Positions 32 through 27,841 are shown, numbered from the stretch's first letter. The stretch is DNA of 28,093 nt from Candidatus Nealsonbacteria bacterium (GCA_043819385.1 JBDREW010000015.1:1-28093); one strand, 5' to 3'. The notes: generated by a model not told the origin, from the letters alone. Numbers and translations are program-made.

Positions 32-772
32 TTATCCCAAAAATAAATCTTTGGATTTATTTAATTCTGACTCATTCAGCTCTTTTTTAAACATAACCCA
101 ATTTTCAATAAAATCTCTAAATCCTTGTTTTCCTTCCATTATTTCTGTCATAAATTCTCTTTCTGTGACAGAAGGAAAGTTTTTATTTTCTAAATAATCA
201 GGATAACTTGACCACTTATATTCTTGTTCTAAGAATTTAATAACTCTTTCTGGATCTTTAATTCCTATTTCTTTCCACTTTGGTTCTATTATTGATATAG
301 GGTTAGTATGTATATATGTAAATGTTATTTTTAATTGATTATTATCTTCTATTAAAACCGATTTAAATTTATCCTGAAATACATGTCCCTTCCTCTCATA
401 TTTTTTATTAAAATAACTAGCATAACCAGTACCAACTTTACTCATAAATTTAGTTATTCCATTATCTTTCATCTGTTTCAATAACAAATGAATATGATTA
501 GGCATAAAACAAAAAGCTAAAATATCAACAAATTTATCTCTTTTATCAATAATTTTATCGGATTGTGGAGATATAGTTTGCAATAATTTTTCTCTTTTAC
601 GCTCTACCCTCCTTTCTCTAATTTCTATTAATTTATCATTATTAAACTCATAAATAGAAAAAATACCACGATAATAATCGTCTTTATTTTTAAAAAGTAA
701 ATTATCATCTACTATTCTTAAAACAACATGATAAATCTCTCCATTAATAAATTCTCTTTTGTTACGAGGCAT
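32..772 (-). CDS. HUH / Y1 tyrosine transposase, IS200-like, REP-associated (RAYT-like)
   Basis: 246-aa ORF. It has N-terminal YHVVLR, the HUH motif MPNHIHLLL and a C-terminal YIHTNP catalytic-Tyr motif typical of Transposase_17/RAYT proteins. A GC-rich REP-like palindrome lies just upstream at 802-845. Confidence 0.7.
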   Translation of the reverse strand: MPRNKREFINGEIYHVVLRIVDDNLLFKNKDDYYRGIFSIYEFNNDKLIEIRERRVERKREKLLQTISPQSDKIIDKRDKFVDILAFCFMPNHIHLLLKQMKDNGITKFMSKVGTGYASYFNKKYERKGHVFQDKFKSVLIEDNNQLKITFTYIHTNPISIIEPKWKEIGIKDPERVIKFLEQEYKWSSYPDYLENKNFPSVTEREFMTEIMEGKQGFRDFIENWVMFKKELNESELNKSKDLFLG

Positions 773-801
773 AAAAAATAAAATTTACCAAATGATATAG
801 C

Positions 802-845
802 TCCGGGGGTCTTGCCCCCGGAGCTCCGGGGGCAAGACCCCCGGA
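802..845. repeat. REP-like GC-rich perfect palindrome (44 bp), centre GGAGCTCC; two mutually complementary G5/C5 hairpins
   Basis: Base-by-base check gives perfect complementarity 802-845 (ctccgggggtcttgcccccggag|ctccgggggcaagacccccgga). It is GC-rich in an AT-rich context. A related copy lies at 6901-6948. Confidence 0.8.
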
Positions 846-3098: not shown

Positions 3099-3524
3099 AT
3101 GCAATTTACAGTACCAAAATTTATTGAAAACAAACCAAAAATAATAGGTCCGCTTACTTTTAAACAATTTGTTTTTGTTGGAACAGCGGGTGGCATTTGC
3201 CTTTTTCTTTATTTTATCATTCCCATCTCTCTTTTTATAATCATAACCATATTTTTATTAGGCGGAGCTTTTGCTTTAGCTTTTATTAAAATTGGAAAGG
3301 ACCCTTTACCTGTTGTTATAAGAAATCTTCTTGTTTACAATTTTAATCCAAAAATTTATCTTTGGAAAAAAGAAATAGGCACTCCAAAAACAATAATATT
3401 AAAAAAGAAAGAAAAAATACCTGCTTTTATAAAAAATCAAGAAGACAAAAAAACTGAATTAAAAGTAACAAGAAATAGCAAATTAGACAGATTACTAACT
3501 AAAATTGCTACAAAAAACAAATGA
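3099..3524 (+). CDS. PrgI/VirB3-like small two-TM T4SS protein
   Basis: 141 aa. The N-terminus MQFTVPKFIENKPKIIGPLTFKQFVFVG is followed by two hydrophobic helices. It sits immediately upstream of VirB4 and is translationally coupled to it (ATGA overlap), as for Tn916 orf17/PrgI. Confidence 0.5.
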   Translation: MQFTVPKFIENKPKIIGPLTFKQFVFVGTAGGICLFLYFIIPISLFIIITIFLLGGAFALAFIKIGKDPLPVVIRNLLVYNFNPKIYLWKKEIGTPKTIILKKKEKIPAFIKNQEDKKTELKVTRNSKLDRLLTKIATKNK

Positions 3525-4171
3525 AAGAATCATCAACTCAAGATTTTTTAGAATTTGAACAAATAAAAAACGGGATTATCATTTTAAAAAATAAAGCATT
3601 AAGATCAGTTTTAATGACTTCTTCTTTGAATTTTGCTTTAAAATCTGAAGAAGAGCAACAATCTATTTTATATCAATTTCAAAACTTTTTGAATTCTTTA
3701 GATTTTTCAACTCAAATCCTTGTTCAATCAAGAAAATTAAATATAACTGGCTATTTAGATAAATTAAGAGAAATTGAAAAAAAAGAAAAAAGCGAATTAC
3801 TTAAAATACAACTTGATGAATATAGAAAATTTATAGAAAAAATATTATCCCAAGGGACTATTATGCAAAAAAGTTTCTATGTAATTGTCCCTTTTTCAAT
3901 TATGGAAACAAAGGAAACATCAACTATTAAAAAAGGACTCTTACCTAAAATCATTCCAGAATTAACTGAAGAAGAGTTTAATAGAGCAAAAACCCAACTT
4001 TTACAAAGGGTAGAATTTGTATCTTTAGGATTAAGAGGATTTGGACTTCAATCTTCTCCTTTAAATACATTAGAAATTATTGAACTTTTCTGGGGACTTC
4101 ATCATCCGTCAGAAGCTGAAAAAGGATATTACCCAGAATTTCCACTTGATTTAGATTTAGAAGAAGAATAA
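3521..4171 (+). CDS. VirB4/TrbE-family ATPase, N-terminal domain (5' half of a split gene)
   Basis: 216 aa. The segment FEQIKNGIIILKNKALRSVLMTSSLNFALKSEEEQQSILYQFQNFLNSLDFSTQILVQS matches the conserved N-terminal region of Gram-positive VirB4 homologues (Tn916 Orf16/TcpF/PrgJ type) from memory. The ORF ends 184 bp before the ATPase ORF, which is in a different frame. Confidence 0.6.
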   Translation: MKESSTQDFLEFEQIKNGIIILKNKALRSVLMTSSLNFALKSEEEQQSILYQFQNFLNSLDFSTQILVQSRKLNITGYLDKLREIEKKEKSELLKIQLDEYRKFIEKILSQGTIMQKSFYVIVPFSIMETKETSTIKKGLLPKIIPELTEEEFNRAKTQLLQRVEFVSLGLRGFGLQSSPLNTLEIIELFWGLHHPSEAEKGYYPEFPLDLDLEEE

Positions 4172-4186
4172 ATTTATTTATTTTCA

Positions 4187-4338
4187 AGCGAGCGAGAGAA
4201 ATGTGAAAGCTTGCTTTCACATTTCCGAGCGAGTGCTGAAAATGTATGTATTAAATACATTTTTTAATACCCCCACCCCTTGGGGTGGGATAAATATAAG
4301 TCTTTTGGGTGGGGTATAATACCCCAACCAAAAGTTCA
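4187..4338. repeat. block of four hairpins/palindromes filling the gap between the VirB4 halves
   Basis: The four elements are 4187-4237 agcgagcgagagaaatgtgaaagc/ttgc/tttcacatttccgagcgagtgct, 4240-4266 aaaatgtat-gtattaa-atacattttt, 4268-4291 ccccacccc-ttgg-ggtggg, and 4296-4330 cttttgggtggggtat-aat-accccaaccaaaag. Confidence 0.7.
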
Positions 4339-4355
4339 ATATATTCATATTTATT

Positions 4356-6161
4356 ATGAAATTACCATTTACAAAACAATTTAAAAGGAGAGAGAAAATC
4401 ATAGAACTTCCTGTACCATCTCAATCTGTTCAAATTTCTGATGTTATTGCTCCTTCTTTTATTGAAGTTAAGCAAAATCATATCAAAATAGGAGAACGTC
4501 TTGCTAAAACCTATTTTATTTTTTCATATCCAAGATATTTAACTACTGGATGGCTTTCTCCAATAATAAATCTAAATGTCCCAATGGATATTTCTTTTTA
4601 TCTTCATCCTGTTGAATCAGGAAAAATTTTAAAACAATTAAGAAGAAGAGTTACTGAAGTCCAAGCAGAAATTGGCGAAAAAGAAGAAAAAGGACAAATT
4701 AGAGACCCACAATTAGAAACAGCTTATGGCGATTTAGAAGAATTAAGAGACAAGCTCCAAACTGCCCAAGAAAGGATGTTTTATTTTGGATTATACCTAA
4801 CTATTTATGCTGATTCCGAAAAAGAACTAAGAGACACTGAAACAAACTTAAGATCAATTTTAGAATCTAGATTAATTTATATTAAGCCCGCTCTTTATCA
4901 ACAAAAAGAAGGATTTGTTTCTACTTCTCCATATAATTTAGACGTTCTAATGATTTCTAATTTGATGAACACTGGGCCTTTGTCAAGTATGTTTCCATTT
5001 ATTTCTTTTGATTTGAGTTCAAATGAAGGAATTCTTTATGGAATTAATAGGCACAACAATTCACTTGTTTTATTCGACCGATTTACTTTAGCAAATGCAA
5101 ATTCAGTAATTTTTGGAATATCAGGAGGAGGAAAATCCTATGCTATAAAATTAGAAATTTTAAGATATTTAATGCTTGGAACTGATGTTATAATTTTAGA
5201 CCCTGAAAATGAATATAAGTTTCTTTCAGATGCTGTTGGCGGGTCTTTTTTTAATATATCTTTGGCCTCTCCACATCATCTTAATCCATTTGATTTACCA
5301 CAACCAAGAGAAGATGAACTCGTAGAAGATGTTTTAAGAACAAACATTATGAATTTAGTTGGATTGATAAGAATAATGCTTGGTGGATTGACACCAGAAG
5401 AAGACGCAATTATTGATAGCGGATTAACTGAGACCTATGCTGCAAAAGATATTACTGCTAAATCAGATCCAAAACTATGGGGAAAAGAAGATGGATTAGA
5501 ATTTCCTATTATGAGTGATTTTGAAGAAGTTCTTTCAACAATGGAAGGAGCAGAATCATTAGTAAGACGACTTCAAAGATTTACCAAAGGAGTCTATTCA
5601 AGTTTTTTTAATCAACGAACTAATATAGATGTAGATAAAAGAATGGTTGTTTTTGGTATTCGTAATATGGAAGACGAACTTCGTCCAATGGCTTTATTTA
5701 TGATTTTAAGATTTATTTGGAAAACCGTTAGTGCCAAAATGAAAAAACGACTTTTAGTTATTGATGAGGCATGGTGGTTAATGCAAAATGAAGATGGTGC
5801 TTCTTTCTTATTTGGAACAGTTAAAAGGGCTAGAAAATACTGGCTTGGAGTTACTACTATTACCCAAGATGTAGCTGATTTTATGAAATCTGAATATGGT
5901 CAACCAATTATTACTAATTCATCACTTGCTTTATTGATGAAACAAAATCCAGCAACAATAGAAGTTGTTAAAAAAACTTTCAACCTAACTGAAGAAGAAA
6001 AGCTTTTACTTTTAGAAACACCCGTTGGAGAAGGTATATTTTTTGCCGGAACAAAACATGTTTTAGTTAAAATATTAGCTTCATATGCCGAAGATCAAAT
6101 AATTACAACTTCCCCTGAAGAAGTTGAGAAAATAAGACAAGCAAAAAAAGAATTAGAATAA
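4356..6161 (+). CDS. virB4: VirB4/TrbE/PrgJ-family T4SS ATPase (ATPase part)
   Basis: 601 aa with Walker A GISGGGKS, Walker B LLVIDEAW, and the IGERLAKTYFIFSYPRYLTTGWL and ILDPENEY motifs characteristic of VirB4 ATPases. Confidence 0.85.
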   Translation: MKLPFTKQFKRREKIIELPVPSQSVQISDVIAPSFIEVKQNHIKIGERLAKTYFIFSYPRYLTTGWLSPIINLNVPMDISFYLHPVESGKILKQLRRRVTEVQAEIGEKEEKGQIRDPQLETAYGDLEELRDKLQTAQERMFYFGLYLTIYADSEKELRDTETNLRSILESRLIYIKPALYQQKEGFVSTSPYNLDVLMISNLMNTGPLSSMFPFISFDLSSNEGILYGINRHNNSLVLFDRFTLANANSVIFGISGGGKSYAIKLEILRYLMLGTDVIILDPENEYKFLSDAVGGSFFNISLASPHHLNPFDLPQPREDELVEDVLRTNIMNLVGLIRIMLGGLTPEEDAIIDSGLTETYAAKDITAKSDPKLWGKEDGLEFPIMSDFEEVLSTMEGAESLVRRLQRFTKGVYSSFFNQRTNIDVDKRMVVFGIRNMEDELRPMALFMILRFIWKTVSAKMKKRLLVIDEAWWLMQNEDGASFLFGTVKRARKYWLGVTTITQDVADFMKSEYGQPIITNSSLALLMKQNPATIEVVKKTFNLTEEEKLLLLETPVGEGIFFAGTKHVLVKILASYAEDQIITTSPEEVEKIRQAKKELE

Positions 6162-6235
6162 TATAGTAAAATTAAAAATCAAAATGCAAAATGCAAAATA
6201 ACAAATTAAAAATCAAAATGGGAGAGGAGGGAAAA

Positions 6236-6300
6236 AGCTGGAAAGAGCCCCGACCTCTCTTAGAGAGGGAGAGGAAGTTTTTTAGAGGTCGGGGTTCGGG
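6236..6300 (+). repeat. dispersed structured ~65-bp repeat (copy 1): AGCTGGAAAGAGCCCCGACCTCTCTTAGAGAGGGAGAGGAAGTTTTTTAGAGGTCGGGGTTCGGG; internally deleted partial copy at 6341-6366
   Basis: Inverted repeat CCCCGACCTCT / AGAGGTCGGGG enclosing a CTCTCTTAGAGAG palindrome. Near-identical copies at 27665-27727 (+) and 21238-21310 (-). Confidence 0.8.
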
Positions 6301-6424: not shown

Positions 6425-6880
6425 ATGGAAAAAGATAACTCAAAACAAGAAAATAATTTAGAAGAAGAAAAACCAAAGCCAATTCTCAGTCAAGGGGAAA
6501 TGAAATTTCCAAAAGTTGAAATTGGTATGGGAGCTATTTTTAGCCCAGAAGCATTAGTGATGTTTTCTCTTGCTGGAATACTTGATATAATTGGATTTCT
6601 TCTTCTTTGTTTTGCATTAGATGATCTCTGGATTCTTGATACAACCGGACTAATACTTATTGGTTCTTGGATGTTTTTTAGAACAGGAAGCATTCCTACA
6701 TCTAAAAGATTAAGACAAAATAAACAAAATCCTACCTCAGAAATAAAAAAGAAAATGGGAAGAAAAATTTTAAAAAGATTAGGATTAGCTTTTTTTATTG
6801 AAGCAATACCATGGATTGGAGGTCTTGTTCCATCTTGGACTATAGCTGTTTATTTTGAACTTAAAAATAATCCACTATAA
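6425..6880 (+). CDS. hypothetical small membrane protein
   Basis: 151 aa with 2-3 hydrophobic helices. It lies between virB4 and the pilin-fusion genes. Confidence 0.5.
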   Translation: MEKDNSKQENNLEEEKPKPILSQGEMKFPKVEIGMGAIFSPEALVMFSLAGILDIIGFLLLCFALDDLWILDTTGLILIGSWMFFRTGSIPTSKRLRQNKQNPTSEIKKKMGRKILKRLGLAFFIEAIPWIGGLVPSWTIAVYFELKNNPL

Positions 6881-6900
6881 AAACAAAGAAAGAATATAGA

Positions 6901-6948
6901 TTTACGGGGGTCTTACCCCCGGAGCTCCGGGGGTAAGACCCCCGTAAA
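6901..6948. repeat. REP-like 48-bp perfect palindrome (tttacgggggtcttacccccggag|ctccgggggtaagacccccgtaaa), centre GGAGCTCC
   Basis: Its reverse complement equals itself. It belongs to the same family as 802-845. Confidence 0.8.
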
Positions 6949-6964
6949 TTCTTTCTATAAATTA

Positions 6965-9022
6965 ATGGATAATGAAAAAAAAACAAAAGATATAAAAAGA
7001 GTTTTTTTTGGATTTTTAATCCTCTTTTTTTTATTTTTTACAAATATTGTTTTTGCTTTAGAGGTTGATTATCCATCATTTCCTGGAATACCAGATATCA
7101 ACAATTCAACATCAATGGAAGATATCACTATTTATAGGTTTAGATTTATTATTATAATTTCTGGATTTATAGCTTTATTATCTTTAGTAATAGCTGGAGC
7201 TCGTTATCTTACCTCAACCGGAAAACCAGATAAAATGGCGTCTGCCAAAGAACAAATCTCAAATGCTTTTTTTGGTCTTTTACTTTTATTGTCATCATTC
7301 CTTTTACTTCAAGCCATAAGCCCTAAATTTGTTGAATTAGGAATAACAAAACCAGAAAAAATTGAAACACCAGAAATTATAGAAACATCCGACTTCCCAA
7401 TTCAAGAGTTTAGGTCATCAATATATACTGAAATCCCTTTTGGAAAAATAATTGAACAATATATATTAGAAAATAAAAATACAATTGAAGAAGATAAAAA
7501 AGACAAAAGAAAATCAAGAATGGAAAGAATTTTAGATATTGGAGAAAACTCATTACAACTTGGCGAAAAATTAAAAAAACAAAGTGAAGAATTAAAAGAA
7601 CTTGCTCAAAAATGCGATTGTACTCAATTAAAAACTTGCTGTGAAAATTCTAATCCAGGGCCTGCCTGCACAAGTAATCTTTGTGTTTCAAAACCAGGAT
7701 GTACTGGAGACCCATGTAAAAATTCAAGAGATAATATCCAAAAAAAAGAAAAAGAAAATTTAAAAGCAATGTATGAGGGAACAGAAGTTAAACAAGATGA
7801 TATTTCTGGAAATTCTTCTCAAGTCACAACTAGCTTAAGAACTGAACAAGAAAGGGCTTCCCAAGAAATTCGACTTATAAAATATGAGATAGATAAAATA
7901 GAAAGAGCGGAAACCTTTATGATAGAATGTCCATTATGGTCAATAACAAATTTATCTGATTATTTAGATACAAAAAACTTTTATTTAGAAAAAAAATGGA
8001 GATTTGAGCCAGTTAATTTTTGGTCGGATATAAGGGTAATTGATGATTGGGCAACTGTTTATTGTGCAGTAAGTGGTAATACTTGGGAATCAAATTATCA
8101 AGAATCATCTGGCAAGATAGAAGATCTTTCAAAATCAGTGAAACGATCATATCAAGGATTTTCTAGCGACAAAGAACCAGTCACTTGTACAACTGAAATT
8201 TCAATTGGTGAGCTTATGGATAGAGCCAAAAGAACTGGATATAAATTAGTAGAAAGATTAGAAAAAATTATTGATTTGAATGAACAATTAACAAAAGCTG
8301 TTAATGACCTTCATACATTAGTAAGTCAATGCTCATCTCTCGGACCATCCGCTGATCCTCCACGAGCAGGTTGTTTTTCTCAATGCCATAAAACAATTCT
8401 TAACGCTTGTATTAAACAATGTATAGGTTTAGCTCCAGGATGGCAAGGACCTTGCCCAGCTCAAAAAATTGAAGAAAAAATTAAAGAAATTAAAGATATT
8501 GTAGAAGGAGTTCCAAACCAACCAGCTGAAAATGAAGAAAAAAAGGAAAAAGAAGGGATAAAAGATGTACTTGAAGCCAAGAAAAAAACAAAAAAAGAAG
8601 CTATTGAAGATAACGCAACAAGAGAACAAATAGGTATAAAACCAATTGTCAATGAAGTTGTTCCAAAAATAATTGAAGATTTGGCTGGAATGGTCAGAAA
8701 TCCTATTAAAAAATGTGTTTCTGGATTTACAGGGATAAGTCAAGTATTAAGCTGTAGCAATAGTATTAATGGAATAGGGCCAGAAGATAAATTAATTAAA
8801 GAATGTTGTTATAACGAAAAATGGTTTCAAGAATGTCTTGGTCAATGTTATTTAGAGGGTCCTAAAAATGAATCATCTGATAATAATTCAACAGGAAAAA
8901 AAGAGGAAAGCGAATATAAAAAATGTTTAAAAAGCTGTCAAGATAAAAAAGCCAAAGAAACTAAAATAGACGCAATATCTGATTGTCTTCATTTAATTAA
9001 TTTCTATTGTTGCTCACCATAA
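6965..9022 (+). CDS. VirB2/TrbC-like pilin-domain protein with long Cys-rich/coiled-coil C-terminal extension (paralog 1, 685 aa)
   Basis: Signal peptide, then LEVDYPSFPG, then a hydrophobic helix ...ISGFIALLSLVIAGARYLTSTGKPDKMASAKEQISNAFFGLLLLL... that aligns with the short pilin at 27067-27501. The C-terminal ~530 aa carry multiple CxxC/CC clusters and Lys/Glu-rich coiled coil. Confidence 0.7.
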   Translation: MDNEKKTKDIKRVFFGFLILFFLFFTNIVFALEVDYPSFPGIPDINNSTSMEDITIYRFRFIIIISGFIALLSLVIAGARYLTSTGKPDKMASAKEQISNAFFGLLLLLSSFLLLQAISPKFVELGITKPEKIETPEIIETSDFPIQEFRSSIYTEIPFGKIIEQYILENKNTIEEDKKDKRKSRMERILDIGENSLQLGEKLKKQSEELKELAQKCDCTQLKTCCENSNPGPACTSNLCVSKPGCTGDPCKNSRDNIQKKEKENLKAMYEGTEVKQDDISGNSSQVTTSLRTEQERASQEIRLIKYEIDKIERAETFMIECPLWSITNLSDYLDTKNFYLEKKWRFEPVNFWSDIRVIDDWATVYCAVSGNTWESNYQESSGKIEDLSKSVKRSYQGFSSDKEPVTCTTEISIGELMDRAKRTGYKLVERLEKIIDLNEQLTKAVNDLHTLVSQCSSLGPSADPPRAGCFSQCHKTILNACIKQCIGLAPGWQGPCPAQKIEEKIKEIKDIVEGVPNQPAENEEKKEKEGIKDVLEAKKKTKKEAIEDNATREQIGIKPIVNEVVPKIIEDLAGMVRNPIKKCVSGFTGISQVLSCSNSINGIGPEDKLIKECCYNEKWFQECLGQCYLEGPKNESSDNNSTGKKEESEYKKCLKSCQDKKAKETKIDAISDCLHLINFYCCSP

Positions 9023-9027
9023 AAAAA

Positions 9028-10626
9028 ATGTTTAAAAAAATCATTATTCTAATATCTGCTTTTTTAATTATTGGTTTTATTTTTGCTCCTATTTCTTATG
9101 CTCTTGAAACTAATTATCCATCAGTCCCCGGAGCTTCACAACCATCAGACCAAACATCTTTACCAGATTTTGTAAAATATATTTTTGTACTTTTAATCGC
9201 TGGATCTGGAATTATTGCTATATTTAGTTTAACAATAGCTGGATTCCGTTATTTAAATTCAGGAGGAAATCCAGAAAAAATAAAGCAAGCAAGAGGTCAA
9301 GTATTATCAGCTTTTTGGGGAATTATGATTTTATTAGGTTCTTGGGTTATTCTAAATATTATCAATCCAAAATTAACTTCTTTAGAATTAGAAGACCCAA
9401 TTCCTGTTCCTGGTGTAGAAATACCTGCTCCTCCAATTTATTCTATTCCTACTTCAGATCTTTTATTAAGAGTAAAATTATTAGTTGAGGCAACAAAAAA
9501 AACTCCTGATTATATAAAAGAAACAGCTAAAAAAATAAAAGAATTAACTGATAAGTGTGATTGTGGAAATACTCAATCCATTTGTGCTTGTGAAAAAGGA
9601 GGACAATCATCATTAGATAAAAAACCATGGGATTATAGTTTAGATAATTACGATACAGATATCTTTTTATTATCTTATGAAAAAAAACCAATAATTATTC
9701 CTAAAACATTTAATGATAGCATAGAACCAATCGGAGCAGGTGGAGAAACTCCATTTGGTGGTGGTGGTATAGAACCAATTGGAGCAGGTGGAGAAACTCC
9801 ATTTGGTGGTGGTATAGAACCAATTGGAGCAGGTGGAGAAACTCCATTTGGCGGTGGTGGTATAGAACCAATTGGAGCAGGTGGAGAAACTCCAGGAGAG
9901 CCTGGAGGAGAGCCTGGAGGAGAATCTGGAGGAGAACCCGAAGGAGAGCCCGAAGAAGGAGGACCAGATCAAAATTTAATTTGTAAACCAAAAACTTGCT
10001 ATATTGGACAATCCTCTAACCCTTGCCCTGACAAAGAAGATATTAAAAAATATGAAAAAGCTCTTATTGACCAAAAAGATATGATTTTCTATTATAAGAA
10101 TAGGGTATATGAAGAAAGAAATGATTTAACCACTGATATAGAACAATTTATAGATAAAGAAATATCTTGGTACGAAGAACAAATACAGGCTGAGGAAAAA
10201 TTAGAGGACTGGGGAGGATTAAAACAAAGAAAAATAGATTTTCTTCAAGAAAGAAAAAGCTGGTTAGAACAAGAAAAAAAATACAAACAAGAATTAATCC
10301 AAGAGCTTGAACAACTTGCTCAAATTATTGAAAAAATAGGAGATCCATCTATAAAAATTCCTCAACTATCAAATCAATGTTTAATAAATGTAAAAACAAA
10401 ATGTCAGGCAAGATGTAAACAAAGCAATGACAATGGATGTATTGATAAAGTAAAAGGGTGCGAACCAGACTCTTGTACGGGAGGAAATCCATGTTCAACT
10501 GGTGAGATACAATCTGAAATAAGTAAAATTGAACAAATTTCTCAAGAAATCAAAAGTAAATGTGATCAAATAATTTCTACTATAAACAATATAGAAAAAG
10601 AAAAAACTCCAACTAAAACGCTTTAA
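9028..10626 (+). CDS. VirB2/TrbC-like pilin-domain protein with repeat-containing Cys-rich extension (paralog 2)
   Basis: Same N-terminal architecture (ALETNYPSVPG, LPDFVKYIFVLLIAGSGIIAIFSLTIAGFRYLNSGGNPEKIKQARGQVLSAFWGIMILLGSWVILNIINP). The track start at 9007 is TTG; ATG at 9028 is more likely. Contains tandem IEPIGAGGETPFGGGG and GEPGG repeats and Cys clusters. Confidence 0.7.
   Translation: MFKKIIILISAFLIIGFIFAPISYALETNYPSVPGASQPSDQTSLPDFVKYIFVLLIAGSGIIAIFSLTIAGFRYLNSGGNPEKIKQARGQVLSAFWGIMILLGSWVILNIINPKLTSLELEDPIPVPGVEIPAPPIYSIPTSDLLLRVKLLVEATKKTPDYIKETAKKIKELTDKCDCGNTQSICACEKGGQSSLDKKPWDYSLDNYDTDIFLLSYEKKPIIIPKTFNDSIEPIGAGGETPFGGGGIEPIGAGGETPFGGGIEPIGAGGETPFGGGGIEPIGAGGETPGEPGGEPGGESGGEPEGEPEEGGPDQNLICKPKTCYIGQSSNPCPDKEDIKKYEKALIDQKDMIFYYKNRVYEERNDLTTDIEQFIDKEISWYEEQIQAEEKLEDWGGLKQRKIDFLQERKSWLEQEKKYKQELIQELEQLAQIIEKIGDPSIKIPQLSNQCLINVKTKCQARCKQSNDNGCIDKVKGCEPDSCTGGNPCSTGEIQSEISKIEQISQEIKSKCDQIISTINNIEKEKTPTKTL
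9715..9960 (+). repeat. intragenic tandem repeats: 48/45-nt unit x4 (IEPIGAGGETPFGG(G)G) followed by 12-15-nt GGAGAGCCTGGA-type units
   Basis: Direct near-identical nucleotide repeats visible at 9721-9900. They are GC-richer than the flanks. Confidence 0.85.
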
Positions 10627-10632
10627 TTTTTT

Positions 10633-11862
10633 ATGAAAAAAAACATTATTTTATTATTAATATTTCCTTTAATTCTGATTTTATTTTTTCCGTTAATTGT
10701 AAATGGACAAGGAACGGAACCACGTGCCTTAGAGCTTGAATATCCTTCTTTTCCACCCGAAGCTTCTGCGCCGACAAGCACTACATCTTTACCAGATTTT
10801 GTAAAATATATTTTTGTTTTTGCCATAATTATTTCTGGCTTTATCGCATTATTAGTTATTGTTTATGCTGGTTTTGAATACACGGCCTCAATAGGATCTC
10901 CTAACAAAATACAAAGTGCAAAAGATAAAATAAATGGTGCTATTATAGGTTTATTAATATTAGCTGTTTCTTGGTTAATTCTTGATACTATCAATCCTCA
11001 ATTAGTTATTTTCCGATTGCCAAGCGAATTGCCATCTGCTATCCCTGATATAAGTCCTGGAGTTTATTTATGTTCTCAAAGAGTAGATATTTTAGGATTT
11101 TGGCAAAAAAGACAACAAGCTGAACGCGAAGAAGGAACAACCCAAAAACAAACATTTCAAGAATTAACAGGAATACTAAAAACAATAGAACAATATTGTG
11201 CTCCAACTAACCCAGTTCAAACATCAGGAGATATTAGCTCAGATATTGAAGATAAAATTCAATATGTTTATCTTGTACCATCTTTCAGGGAAGCCCAATA
11301 TGGAGCAATCCTTTATGAAGAAAGAGGATTTCAAGGTAAAAGTAGCGTATTTTACGGAACATCAACAGGATCAGGAGGAGTTTCTACATTAGATAAACCA
11401 ACTGAATGGCCTGTACGGAACATTCAAGCATCTTCAGCACGAGTTTTTATACTTAACTTTAATCCAGCTCCATCATGGGAAGCAAGATTATTTGAATTAG
11501 TCCACTTTAATAGAGACGACATAAAAGGAAAAAAAACTCCTGAAGCATGTAAACCAGGAGAACAGGGTTCATCAACGGCAACAGGAAATTGTCAAATACC
11601 TAAAAATAAAGATAATAAAAATGAAGTTGGATCAGTAAATATTGAAGGTAGTATGTTTGTTATATTTTTAAAAGAAGGGGGTGATTGGACAAGCTCATCA
11701 GATAATTATATCCAAGCAAATCCAGGCAATACTGATTTAAACAATACAGTAATGGGCACATGGAAAAGAGAAGAATGTGTTGAAAAAAGAGAACCAGAAC
11801 TACGAGATAGATATTATCCATGTGCTGAAAGGGGAGTTGTTGTGGGTGCAGATTTTTATTAA
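10633..11862 (+). CDS. VirB2/TrbC-like pilin-domain protein with globular C-terminal extension (paralog 3, 409 aa)
   Basis: LELEYPSFPPE, LPDFVKYIFVFAIIISGFIALLVIVYAGFEYTASIGSPNKIQSAKDKINGAIIGLLILAVSWLILDTINPQL, then ~280 aa with scattered Cys. Confidence 0.7.
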   Translation: MKKNIILLLIFPLILILFFPLIVNGQGTEPRALELEYPSFPPEASAPTSTTSLPDFVKYIFVFAIIISGFIALLVIVYAGFEYTASIGSPNKIQSAKDKINGAIIGLLILAVSWLILDTINPQLVIFRLPSELPSAIPDISPGVYLCSQRVDILGFWQKRQQAEREEGTTQKQTFQELTGILKTIEQYCAPTNPVQTSGDISSDIEDKIQYVYLVPSFREAQYGAILYEERGFQGKSSVFYGTSTGSGGVSTLDKPTEWPVRNIQASSARVFILNFNPAPSWEARLFELVHFNRDDIKGKKTPEACKPGEQGSSTATGNCQIPKNKDNKNEVGSVNIEGSMFVIFLKEGGDWTSSSDNYIQANPGNTDLNNTVMGTWKREECVEKREPELRDRYYPCAERGVVVGADFY

Positions 11863-12527: not shown

Positions 12528-13268
12528 TTAATTATTTTTATTTGCTAACTTTTCTTTTTTTAAAAAAAATGTTTGCTGAATAATTGTAAATAAAGTTGTT
12601 ACTACCCAATATAGCCCAATTGCAGAAGGAAGCCTAAAAAGAATTGAAACAGTAAAAACTGGAAGAAAATATTTCATCTGGGTTTGCATAATTTTTGACA
12701 TATCAGGTTTATTTCCTACTGACTTACTATTTTTTCCAACCATATTCATTCCACTCATTTTTACTTGAAAATACTGACCAATACCAGCTAAAACAGCTAA
12801 TATCATATTCGGTTGACTAAGATTTACTATTCCTAAAAACATTGGATTAATCATCTCTGGAGAGGGAACAAAGCTATAAAGCAACGTCATTTGCTCTGGA
12901 TTTAGACCCTGCCAAAATACTCTATAAAGAGCTACCAAAACCGGCAATTGAACCAAAAGAAGCAATATTCCTGAAAAAGGACTTACTTTTTCTTTTTTAT
13001 AAAGAGCCATTATCTCTCGTGCTTGTACTTCCCTATTGTCTTTATATTTTTCCTGAACTTCTTTTACTTTTGGTTGTAATTCTGAAAGAGCTTTTTGAGA
13101 TTTTATTGCTTTATTTCCTAATGGATAAAATACAAACTTAATTAATATAGTTAAAGCAATTATTGCTATTCCAAAATCATGACCAGGAATATACTGATAA
13201 AGTAAAATCAATGCATTAAACAATGGCTGATATAAAAACGTATTAAAAATATCTACTATAAAACCCAT
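12528..13268 (-). CDS. yidC: YidC/Oxa1-family membrane protein insertase
   Basis: 246 aa polytopic protein with conserved YidC core motifs. Synteny rnpA-yidC-jag. Confidence 0.85.
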   Translation of the reverse strand: MGFIVDIFNTFLYQPLFNALILLYQYIPGHDFGIAIIALTILIKFVFYPLGNKAIKSQKALSELQPKVKEVQEKYKDNREVQAREIMALYKKEKVSPFSGILLLLVQLPVLVALYRVFWQGLNPEQMTLLYSFVPSPEMINPMFLGIVNLSQPNMILAVLAGIGQYFQVKMSGMNMVGKNSKSVGNKPDMSKIMQTQMKYFLPVFTVSILFRLPSAIGLYWVVTTLFTIIQQTFFLKKEKLANKNN

Positions 13269-21237: not shown

Positions 21238-21310
21238 CCCCCCGAGACCCGACCTCTAAAAAACTTCCTCTCCCTCTCGAAGAGAGGTCGGGTCTCTACC
21301 AACTTTCCCT
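21238..21310 (-). repeat. dispersed structured repeat, inverted copy (reverse complement: ggtagagacccgacctctcttcgagagggagaggaagttttttagaggtcgggtctcgggg); 17-bp fragment also at 21111-21127
   Basis: Matches 6236-6300 over ~55 bp in reverse orientation. Confidence 0.8.
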
Positions 21311-21325
21311 TTTTTATCTTTTATT

Positions 21326-25922: not shown

Positions 25923-25959
25923 AAAAAACTAGCGGAGGGCAGGGCTCCGCTAGTTTTTT
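25923..25959. terminator. bidirectional terminator aaaaaactagcggag-ggcaggg-ctccgctagtttttt
   Basis: 9-bp GC stem flanked by an A6 run and a T6 run. Confidence 0.7.
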
Positions 25960-26116
25960 AAATTAAAAAAGAATTAAAAAAGGTTAGTAACGAAATACAT
26001 ATAAATTGACCAAGCACCAGCAATTGTTATTACTTTTATCATAATAAAAACTTAATTGTTTAATTAGTTTCACTTTAAAATAAATTACATTTTTTGTAAA
26101 CTATTAGATTAAAGAA

Positions 26117-26164
26117 CTTACGGAGAGGTACTCTCCGGAATTCCGGAGAGTACCTCTCCGTAAG
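26117..26164. repeat. 48-bp perfect palindrome cttacggagaggtactctccggaa|ttccggagagtacctctccgtaag centred on GGAATTCC, followed by a half-copy and a T-run
   Basis: The reverse complement is identical to the sequence. Each arm is itself the hairpin cggagag-gta-ctctccg. A related single hairpin lies at 26935-26966. Confidence 0.85.
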
Positions 26165-26285
26165 TCTCCGTAAGTTTTTTGTTTGTAGGTTTTGACTTTA
26201 CAAAATTAATTTAATTTAGTAATGTTTGATTAGGACTTTTACAAAAACAATATAATGTTTACGTTGCGAAAAAAGGAGAAAACAG

Positions 26286-27066: not shown

Positions 27067-27501
27067 ATGATTAAAAAGATCCTTATAATCTCTTTTTTGG
27101 GATTGTTTGTTTTCTCTCCTTTTATAGTAAATGCTCAAACAAGGTCAGGCTGTCCAACGCAAGGGTTAGTTCCTTGTGGAGGTTCATCGTGTCCATGTAA
27201 ACTTTGTGATTTTTTTAAAATGATTGAAAGAATTGTTGATTTTATTCTTTTTGGAATTGTGCCAGCTTTAGCTGCTTTAATGATAGCAATTGGAGGATTT
27301 ATGTATATTTTTGCTTATTTAGGAGTAGCCGGAGGAGGTCCAGAAATGCTTTCAACTGCCAAAAATGTGTTTAAAGCAGTTATTTTAGGTCTTTTAATAG
27401 TTTATGGTGCTTGGCTAATTATTAATACATTCTTTATGGTAATAGGTGTGGCAGATTGGACTGGTTTAAGGCAAGGATGGTGGACAATTAACTGTAATTA
27501 G
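27067..27501 (+). CDS. VirB2/TrbC-like T4SS pilin, short Cys-motif type common in CPR genomes
   Basis: 144 aa with a signal peptide and CPTQGLVPCGGSSCPCKLCDF. Hydrophobic helix-loop-helix ALMIAIGGFMYIFAYLGVAGGGPEMLSTAKNVFKAVILGLLIVYGAWLIINT. Terminal Cys. Confidence 0.75.
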   Translation: MIKKILIISFLGLFVFSPFIVNAQTRSGCPTQGLVPCGGSSCPCKLCDFFKMIERIVDFILFGIVPALAALMIAIGGFMYIFAYLGVAGGGPEMLSTAKNVFKAVILGLLIVYGAWLIINTFFMVIGVADWTGLRQGWWTINCN

Positions 27502-27622: not shown

Positions 27623-27664
27623 TATATATAAAATAAATATTTAAAATAGAAAGTAAAAGGGGAA

Positions 27665-27727
27665 AGCTGGAAAAAGTCCCGACCTCTCTCGAGAGGGAAA
27701 AGAAGTTTTGTAGAGGTCGGGGCTTGG
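27665..27727 (+). repeat. dispersed structured repeat copy (agctggaaaaagtcccgacctctctcgagagggaaaagaagttttgtagaggtcggggcttgg) ~40 bp downstream of tRNA-Lys
   Basis: Same family as 6236-6300. Confidence 0.8.
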
Positions 27728-27841
27728 AGAGGAAGAGAAAAAATAGAGAAATTAGTTAAAAATTTGAATCTCATTCAAAATTAAAAATTAATTTAAAGGT
27801 TGGATAATAAGTTGGATAATAAGTAATATGATAAAATTAAT

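Follow-up and report, generated by a model that had tools for sequence, protein, structure and literature searches.

The DNA analyzed here (the window) is a whole contig of 28,093 bp from a metagenome-assembled genome (MAG) of Candidatus Nealsonbacteria, which belongs to the candidate phyla radiation (CPR; Patescibacteria). Close to one end it carries a gene for a Y1-type HUH nuclease/transposase next to a perfect GC-rich palindrome. With a probability of roughly 0.65, we believe that this open reading frame (ORF) encodes a class 2 Y1 HUH nuclease/transposase of single-stranded DNA, RAYT/TIRYT-like and part of a large CPR-specific family, and that the palindromes are REPIN-like head-to-head dimers of the hairpin that it recognizes. 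To judge from the sequences of its relatives, nearly all of which have a matching hairpin on either side of the gene and within it, the pairing of nuclease and hairpin is real. Dispersal of the hairpin is far weaker than that of classical repetitive extragenic palindromes (REPs). The features concerned are as follows.

32 to 772, minus strand: Y1 HUH nuclease/transposase gene, apparently intact and of class 2 (RAYT/TIRYT-like), 246 amino acids (aa).
802 to 845, no strand assigned: palindrome 1, a perfect 44-bp head-to-head dimer of G5-TCTTG-C5 around GGAGCTCC; putative cognate element.
791 to 866, no strand assigned: extended repeat unit, shared with 6890 to 6966; the GC core is joined by about 10 AT-rich nt on its left side and about 24 nt (AAATTCYTTMTATAAATTWATG) on its right side.
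6900 to 6949, no strand assigned: palindrome 2, a solo copy that is perfect over 50 bp; dimer of G5-TCTTA-C5 with a TTTAC/GTAAA foot.
26116 to 26165, no strand assigned: palindrome 3, a perfect 50-bp dimer with an ACTTAC foot, a CGGAGAG-GTA-CTCTCCG mini-hairpin, and GGAATTCC at the center.
1 to 31, no strand assigned: end of the contig, 31 nt past the stop codon of the nuclease gene.

The product of the gene is 100% identical to MFH1656262.1 and matches the Pfam family Y1_Tnp (PF01797) with 44.2 bits against a cutoff of 23. Its HUH motif is H93-I-H95 (within MPNHIHLL) and its tyrosine is Y153 in YIHTNP (residues 153 to 158); FQ is found at 132-133 and a WSSY motif in the tail. H93-I-H95, Y153, N157, and P158 are invariant in an alignment of 25 family sequences, and the ORF looks intact because every residue that is invariant across these 25 relatives is present. 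An earlier note on this DNA had seen HUH and tyrosine motifs in the ORF, and the Y1_Tnp match and the residues just listed bear it out. Class 2 TnpA-Y1 proteins are defined by Y---NP and those of IS200 by Y---Q (Quentin et al. 2018, PMC6006769), and the motif found here, YIHTNP, is of the former kind. Likewise, the NCBIfam model REP_Tyr_transpos (NF047646) scores 46 bits, which is below the NCBI equivalog cutoff of 80, whereas the IS200 hidden Markov model (NF033573) reaches 16.8 bits, below its cutoff of 55. When the family profile was compared with the PDB, the best match was E. coli TnpA-REP (4er8), with an alignment that spans HUH, FQxRF (in E. coli, WQPRF), and YIHTNP (in E. coli, YIYINP); ISDra2 TnpA aligned around HUH only. 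A Foldseek search also placed 4er8_A on top (1.5e-6), with IS200-type structures (IS200, IS608, ISDra2) at 7.5e-5 or worse, and 4er8, 2xm3, and 2a6m were the fold matches at the superfamily level. On these motifs, scores, and folds, the ORF is assigned to class 2 and is RAYT-like rather than IS200-like, as the earlier note had proposed.

The motif set given for subclass 2.1, or TIRYT (NHxH, FQ or W[EQ], Y[IV]HxNP, ~238 aa, SS tail), is found here as NHIH, FQ, YIHTNP, 246 aa, and WSSY. By this comparison of the 25-sequence alignment with Table 1 of PMC6006769, made at the level of motifs only, the family appears closest to subclass 2.1 of Quentin et al. 2018. Pfam searches at E ≤ 1 returned nothing beyond Y1_Tnp and no C-terminal helix-turn-helix (HTH) tail (Bac_DnaA_C, HTH_23, HTH_28). 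The closest relative, MFH1656586.1 (77% identity, 240 aa, on a 10.6-kb contig), is probably a paralog from the same MAG since its accession lies only ~320 from MFH1656262.1.

Palindrome 1, the perfect GC-rich palindrome already noticed upstream of the gene, is 100% self-complementary over its 44 bp and lies 29 nt from the ATG at 772. Palindrome 2 is found 6.1 kb from the nuclease gene, between ORF 6425-6880 and a pilin-like ORF at 6965-9022, with no Y1 gene nearby. It had rightly been called perfect and a member of the same sequence family, but it extends over 6900-6949 (50 bp) and not 6901-6948. Palindrome 3, which the earlier note had overlooked, lies ~25 kb away and has the same layout (TTAC foot, 15-nt mini-hairpin, CCGGARYTCCGG center) with a different stem sequence. 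Its cognate gene may be a Y1 paralog located at another place in the genome, and MFH1656586.1 might be the partner of this type of palindrome. The 29-nt core CGGGGGTCTTRCCCCCGGAGCTCCGGGGG occurs in the window at exactly two sites, palindromes 1 and 2, and had no match in 100 dinucleotide shuffles. Since the similarity between the two sites reaches into the AT-rich flanks, the repeated unit measures ~75 to 85 bp. As single strands, palindromes 1 and 2 each fold into one long hairpin of -29.3 and -29.7 kcal/mol (z = -8.7 and -10.5). They differ at two internal places, the loop end (G/C versus A/T) and the foot (C/G versus A/T), and each change has its mirror image in the other arm. Hence, either the long hairpin or dyad is selected as such, or each palindrome is a head-to-head dimer of a slightly different monomer. 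The feet are TCC/GGA in copy 1 and TTTAC/GTAAA in copies 2 and 3. TTAC, the foot of palindromes 2 and 3, is also the cleavage tetranucleotide of IS608, possibly by coincidence. In Rfam, no family attained its gathering score, and sub-threshold matches of palindrome 2 to "Plastid-psbJ 3'UTR" were rejected as generic matches to a long hairpin.

The coupling of hairpin and gene becomes apparent from the relatives. One genome per GTDB species was scanned, and at least 469 relatives were confirmed among 599 candidate stretches. For the best 80 loci up to 10 kb per side was taken, and 78 homologous CPR loci were analyzed (loci and contigs of this comparison carry L numbers below). Relatives of the protein number in the thousands at ~60 to 65% identity, nearly all of them from CPR MAGs. 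In 60 of the 73 loci for which both flanks were available, the upstream and downstream 150-nt flanks have a run of ≥12 identical nt in common (mean, 19 nt), while matches of this length between the upstream flank and random remote segments of the same loci, which served as a control, numbered 10 in 375. GC-rich hairpins with perfect arms of at least 8 bp are present in 70% of the upstream and 68% of the downstream flanks versus 8% of random segments. The gene itself carries a further copy: the stretch from +130 to +290 nt matches the flanks (≥12 nt) in 65 of 78 loci, compared with 1/78 and 2/78 for two control stretches of the gene. The hairpins sit at nearly constant places, with medians of 17.5 nt between the end of the upstream copy and the ATG, +191 for the start of the internal copy, and 9 nt between the stop codon and the start of the downstream copy. 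The internal hairpin spans +162 to +247 nt (codons ~55 to 75), N-terminal to HUH, and is translated in frame into linker peptides such as GGQSS, RGLTS, and GRDPRSTQLSRPRVST; the ORF is intact through it in 73 of 78 loci. In the AlphaFold model, it maps to a loop of low confidence that separates a helix from the pair of strands bearing HUH.

The sequence of the hairpin varies between genomes, and even between paralogs of one genome, while within a locus the copies match. The flanking copies are mutually inverted in 17 of the 22 loci that could be scored by loop asymmetry. Head-to-head dimers like those of the window are seen in L029, L032, L058, L067, L075, and L078, and the window mini-hairpin is a typical member of this family, its TCTTA/TCTTG loop and TTAC/GTAA foot recurring in L018, L028, L045, and L085. 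The last of these, a Hainich groundwater contig with no Y1 gene on it, has different GC hairpins paired in two intergenic spacers (300-360 and 920-970). In one spacer, the hairpin ACGGGGGTCTTACCCCCGG, which is identical to half of palindrome 2, stands beside a second hairpin; therefore, the monomer exists alone in a related organism. Taken as a cognate DNA element of the gene, as the earlier note had suggested, the palindrome at 802-845 fits this pattern, in which CPR homologs nearly always stand between locus-specific hairpins of their own, and it is very probably the cognate element of ORF 32-772 on this sequence evidence.

For the window gene, the matching downstream copy would lie at the contig end. 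The contig terminates within the region that holds the downstream hairpin in relatives, and its bases 1-8 (GAAATTTC) resemble GAAATTCC, which directly follows palindrome 1. For these two reasons, we suspect that a downstream palindrome interrupted the assembly; ORF 32-772 would then probably be flanked on both sides.

How such a pair might operate can be outlined. When the DNA is single-stranded, as in the lagging-strand template or a transcription bubble, the G5-TCTTR-C5 stem-loops would extrude. The enzyme would bind these stem-loops, nick the foot of the hairpin by means of Tyr153 and an HUH-bound metal, and rejoin the strand. Nicking and rejoining could keep the copies around its own gene uniform, with occasional seeding of solo copies elsewhere, such as the one at 6900-6949. 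We infer binding and cleavage, the way in which copying proceeds and its direction, and a selfish, domesticated, or autoregulatory nature of the system. Tandem duplicates of the 3' arm often follow cognate hairpins, for example CCCCGAGCTT four to five times in L008 (10774-10850) and TTAAGCAAT twice in L002 (12457-12500); in the window, CTCCGTAAGT is likewise present twice in tandem (26156-26175). Such duplicates may be the footprint of slippage or of repeated nicking and rejoining at the hairpin foot.

Several observations weigh against the reading of a RAYT/TIRYT-like enzyme with REPIN-like palindromes. With respect to the protein, the score for REP_Tyr_transpos stays under the equivalog cutoff, as mentioned above, and the AlphaFold model, built from a 25-sequence input, is of low confidence (pLDDT, 59.8) and for that reason was used for fold ranking only. 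With respect to the hairpins, the 5' GT[AG]G guide tetranucleotide is absent from the feet of the window hairpins. Among the relatives, a GTAG start is seen in a few only, e.g., L029, and a TAC...GTA foot, considered as a family-wide guide, was rejected since it occurs in 7 of 96 flank hairpins. The window gene does not have the internal hairpin found in most relatives, and just one palindrome stands beside it, the downstream side being truncated, with 31 nt left after the stop. Finally, copies are few. The 28-kb contig holds two copies of the same sequence, only one of them solo, plus one related palindrome. Across the relatives, the locus hairpin seldom recurs at a distance of more than 150 nt from the gene (9 copies in 770 kb); hence, REP-style proliferation is weak at best. 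The window lies at the higher end of the dispersal in this family, with a solo copy 6.1 kb off and a related palindrome 25 kb off. The exact palindrome motif had no match in 185,579 GTDB species genomes, and the 20-nt half-site had one match in a metagenome collection, a monomer hairpin in another organism. The RAYT/REP-like interpretation of the earlier note is thus partly supported, for the protein and for the probable cognate hairpin; a classical high-copy REP population is not supported by the copies seen in these 28 kb and in the relatives, and the canonical GT[AG]G foot is missing.

Among the known systems, the nearest is TIRtron/TIRYT (Di Nocera et al. 2013, PMC3733652), which corresponds to TnpA-Y1 subclass 2.1 of Quentin et al. 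2018 and to Bertels group 1. Common features are the length of ~240 aa, the NHxH-type HUH, FQ rather than WQ, Y[IV]HxNP, and the C-terminal SS tail (WSSY here). TIRYT genes, too, are flanked by inverted copies of a sequence that is itself sometimes self-complementary, repeats elsewhere are absent or moderately abundant and sometimes dimeric, and copy number is low with divergent paralogs. In contrast, the HTH tail of TIRYTs (Bac_DnaA_C, HTH_23, HTH_28) goes undetected by Pfam here, and the terminal inverted repeat motif GGGGWSAS is found in 4 of 78 loci and not in the window. Moreover, subclass 2.1 has no REP-like hairpins according to Quentin et al. (PMC6006769), whereas short GC hairpins bracket almost every gene of this family, and a third, in-frame copy inside the gene is undescribed there.

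The REPtrons (E. coli 4er8 and Pseudomonas; subclasses 2.2 and 2.5) also have a class 2 Y1 HUH enzyme with Y---NP, cognate hairpins that flank the gene, mostly inverted, a separate hairpin family for each paralog, head-to-head dimers that form one long hairpin (REPIN-like), and intergenic solo copies. The CPR family differs from them in the missing 5' GT[AG]G guide, in a protein ~80 aa longer, in FQ rather than WQ/WE, and in an NCBIfam score that does not reach the equivalog cutoff (46 versus 80). Likewise, a high-copy dispersed population is not demonstrated by the 2 to 3 copies seen in 28 kb or by a density of ~1 remote copy per 85 kb in the relatives. Subclass 2.4 (Cyanobacteria and Bacteroidetes), where REPs lie in frame in tnpA-REP, is the only one for which hairpin copies within the reading frame have been described (Quentin et al. 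2018, PMC6006769). This resembles the in-frame cognate hairpin in a surface loop that we find at the level of the family, but the insertion there lies between HuH and Tyr and here N-terminal to HUH, at codons ~55 to 75. Subclass 2.4 also has WQ and YIxNNP motifs and a GTAG or "double foot" REP, unlike this family, and the window gene has no internal copy. With IS200/IS605 TnpA (IS608, ISDra2, IS200) the family shares the HUH/Tyr fold (Foldseek E values of 1e-4 to 1e-3) and the recognition of a subterminal DNA hairpin; not seen here are Y---Q, a core-only protein of ~150 aa, near-identical multicopy elements, end hairpins of the same orientation, and the frequent tnpB partner. The system thus appears to be a REPtron/TIRtron-like variant that is apparently undescribed for CPR. 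CPR genomes lay outside the study of Quentin et al. 2018 (PMC6006769), and we found no paper on CPR/Patescibacteria with RAYT, REP, or PF01797. The statement in the earlier note that REP/RAYT systems are classically proteobacterial is overstated, since RAYT-type genes occur in about a quarter of species and across many phyla (PMC5581495, PMC6006769).

A wider proposal, to which we would give somewhat less than an even chance, is that the family represents an undescribed CPR-wide Y1 subclass with three coevolving copies of the recognition hairpin per gene, in the 5' untranslated region, in an in-frame loop before HUH, and just past the stop. The enzyme would still act on its own gene, by self-targeting, autoregulation, or cassette-like self-mobilization, and the window palindromes would be dimerized and dispersed derivatives. 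The argument for continued self-action is the uniformity within loci that are very divergent from one another.

The alternative that survives best, although we consider it unlikely, is that of an ordinary autonomous IS200-type insertion sequence (IS) with the hairpins as its left and right ends, in which case the palindrome at 6900 would be an IS remnant or a miniature inverted-repeat transposable element and not a REP. Indeed, the hairpins stand close to the ORF on both sides and mostly do not occur away from it, genomic contexts vary widely between genomes, and many loci end contigs, the window included, as repeats do. More than one copy is found in 12 of 66 genomes. These copies are 40 to 71% identical (23 pairs in the 12 genomes), which is like class 2 and not like IS200, whose copies are ~99% identical within a genome (PMC6006769, Table 1), and each has its own hairpin, with the caveat that identical IS copies collapse in MAG assemblies. 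The Y---NP motif and the 16.8 bits for the IS200 model against its cutoff of 55 also speak against an IS200-type element, as do the flanking hairpins, which are inverted in 17/22 loci and not in the same orientation like IS200/IS605 ends.

Mobility itself is suggested by one presence/absence polymorphism. In L004 (3990-4810), two direct copies of the 25-nt hairpin GCATTGCTTAACCTGGTTAAGCAAT enclose a gene for a 239-aa Y1 paralog (NHYH, WQ, YINVLNP), and at this site the near-identical strains L002 (12440-12500) and L003 lack the gene and show a single hairpin. A cassette insertion targeted to the hairpin could explain this, and so could a deletion between repeats; as it is, the empty site keeps a hairpin, which does not favor an ordinary IS. 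Nor does the position of the gene next to the same type IV secretion system (T4SS)-like cluster in both the window and L008, where the Y1 proteins are 59% identical; this shared neighborhood argues that the position is stable. A tight, operon-like arrangement ligA-Y1-ftsW/rodA on the same strand, with spacers of 13 to 48 nt, occurs in a single subclade (L002, L005, L013, and L064); being restricted to these four loci and not family-wide, it was rejected as a sign of a housekeeping function and is compatible with an IS that enters differing contexts.

Still less probable is that the palindromes are bidirectional terminators or regulatory hairpins at the RNA level that lie next to a Y1 gene by coincidence. 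All three are intergenic, with the one at 802-845 following the stop of a C39-peptidase-like gene and the one at 6900-6949 following ORF 6425-6880, they are very stable, and a lenient terminator scan flags them. Yet no real T-run follows the stems (AATTCC..., AATTCT...), while a canonical terminator at 25923-25959 has A6 and T6 runs, and terminators would not be expected to have an identical 29-nt core with similar AT-rich flanks at two sites. The comparison of loci is equally unfavorable, given the same hairpin inside the coding sequence, matching both flanks, in 65/78 relatives and the enrichment of GC-rich hairpins (arms of ≥8 bp) at Y1 flanks (70%/68% versus 8%).

Finally, we regard it as highly improbable that the HUH protein is a relaxase-like nickase for the adjoining T4SS-like genes with the palindromes as oriT-like nick sites: although PrgI, VirB4-like, TrbL-like, and four T4SS_pilin proteins are encoded in the window, palindrome 2 separates the VirB4 block from the pilin genes, and the L008 Y1 gene adjoins the same cluster, this reading fails because T4SS genes are found within 10 kb in 1 of ~80 homolog loci, and the fold and motifs are those of Y1 transposases rather than MOB relaxases and the three-hairpin arrangement is centered on the Y1 gene.

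The remainder of the contig, whose GC content is 23 to 39%, carries genes of the origin region (rnpA, yidC, and jag, then dnaA and dnaN) and the T4SS-like set, composed of PrgI, a VirB4-like ATPase, a TrbL/VirB6-like protein, and four T4SS_pilin-domain proteins. A second ORF of 246 aa, at 12528-13268, was considered as another transposase copy and rejected, as it is YidC. The four proteins with an N-terminal T4SS_pilin domain are encoded at 6965-11862 and 27067-27501; three are in tandem and unusually long (685, 539, and 409 aa), and such a tandem is typical of CPR surface-appendage loci. The earlier note had suggested that the transposase-palindrome pair could relate to a "split VirB4". The ORFs of 216 aa and 601 aa (3521-6161) are separate and colinear in L008 too (63% and 68% identity), and because this two-ORF layout is conserved the proposed link fails. 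The spacer between them (4171-4356) is 185 nt in the window and 34 nt in L008, and in the window it contains the inverted repeats AAATGTGAAAGC/GCTTTCACATTT, CCCCACCCC/GGGGTGGG, and GGGTGGGGTAT/ATACCCCAACC. A second repeat family, of other sequence, has three intergenic copies of ~80 to 90% identity at 6225-6300 (plus), 27654-27730 (plus), and 21240-21315 (minus). Its core of ~65 nt runs from AAAGCTGGAAAGAG to CCCGACCTCTCTTCGAGAGGGAGAGGAAGTTTTTTAGAGGTCGGG, with an outer stem of 11 to 14 bp and purine-rich flanks; one copy comes after tRNA-Lys, and Rfam had no match for the family.

In summary, the family-wide three-hairpin architecture is more notable than the window locus itself, which is a moderately interesting variant. 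CPR genomes measure ~1 Mb and have almost no spare DNA. Despite this small size, at least 469 GTDB species genomes carry relatives of ORF 32-772. For annotation, Y1 genes of this family should not be taken as evidence of active insertion sequences in CPR genomes, and perfect palindromes like those described here likely cause contig breaks in CPR MAGs. Each locus pairs a single protein with a single hairpin of 17 to 25 nt; with hundreds of such covarying pairs, the family constitutes a compact natural system that could be used for working out a recognition code and for testing self-regulation, hairpin uniformity, or mobilization.

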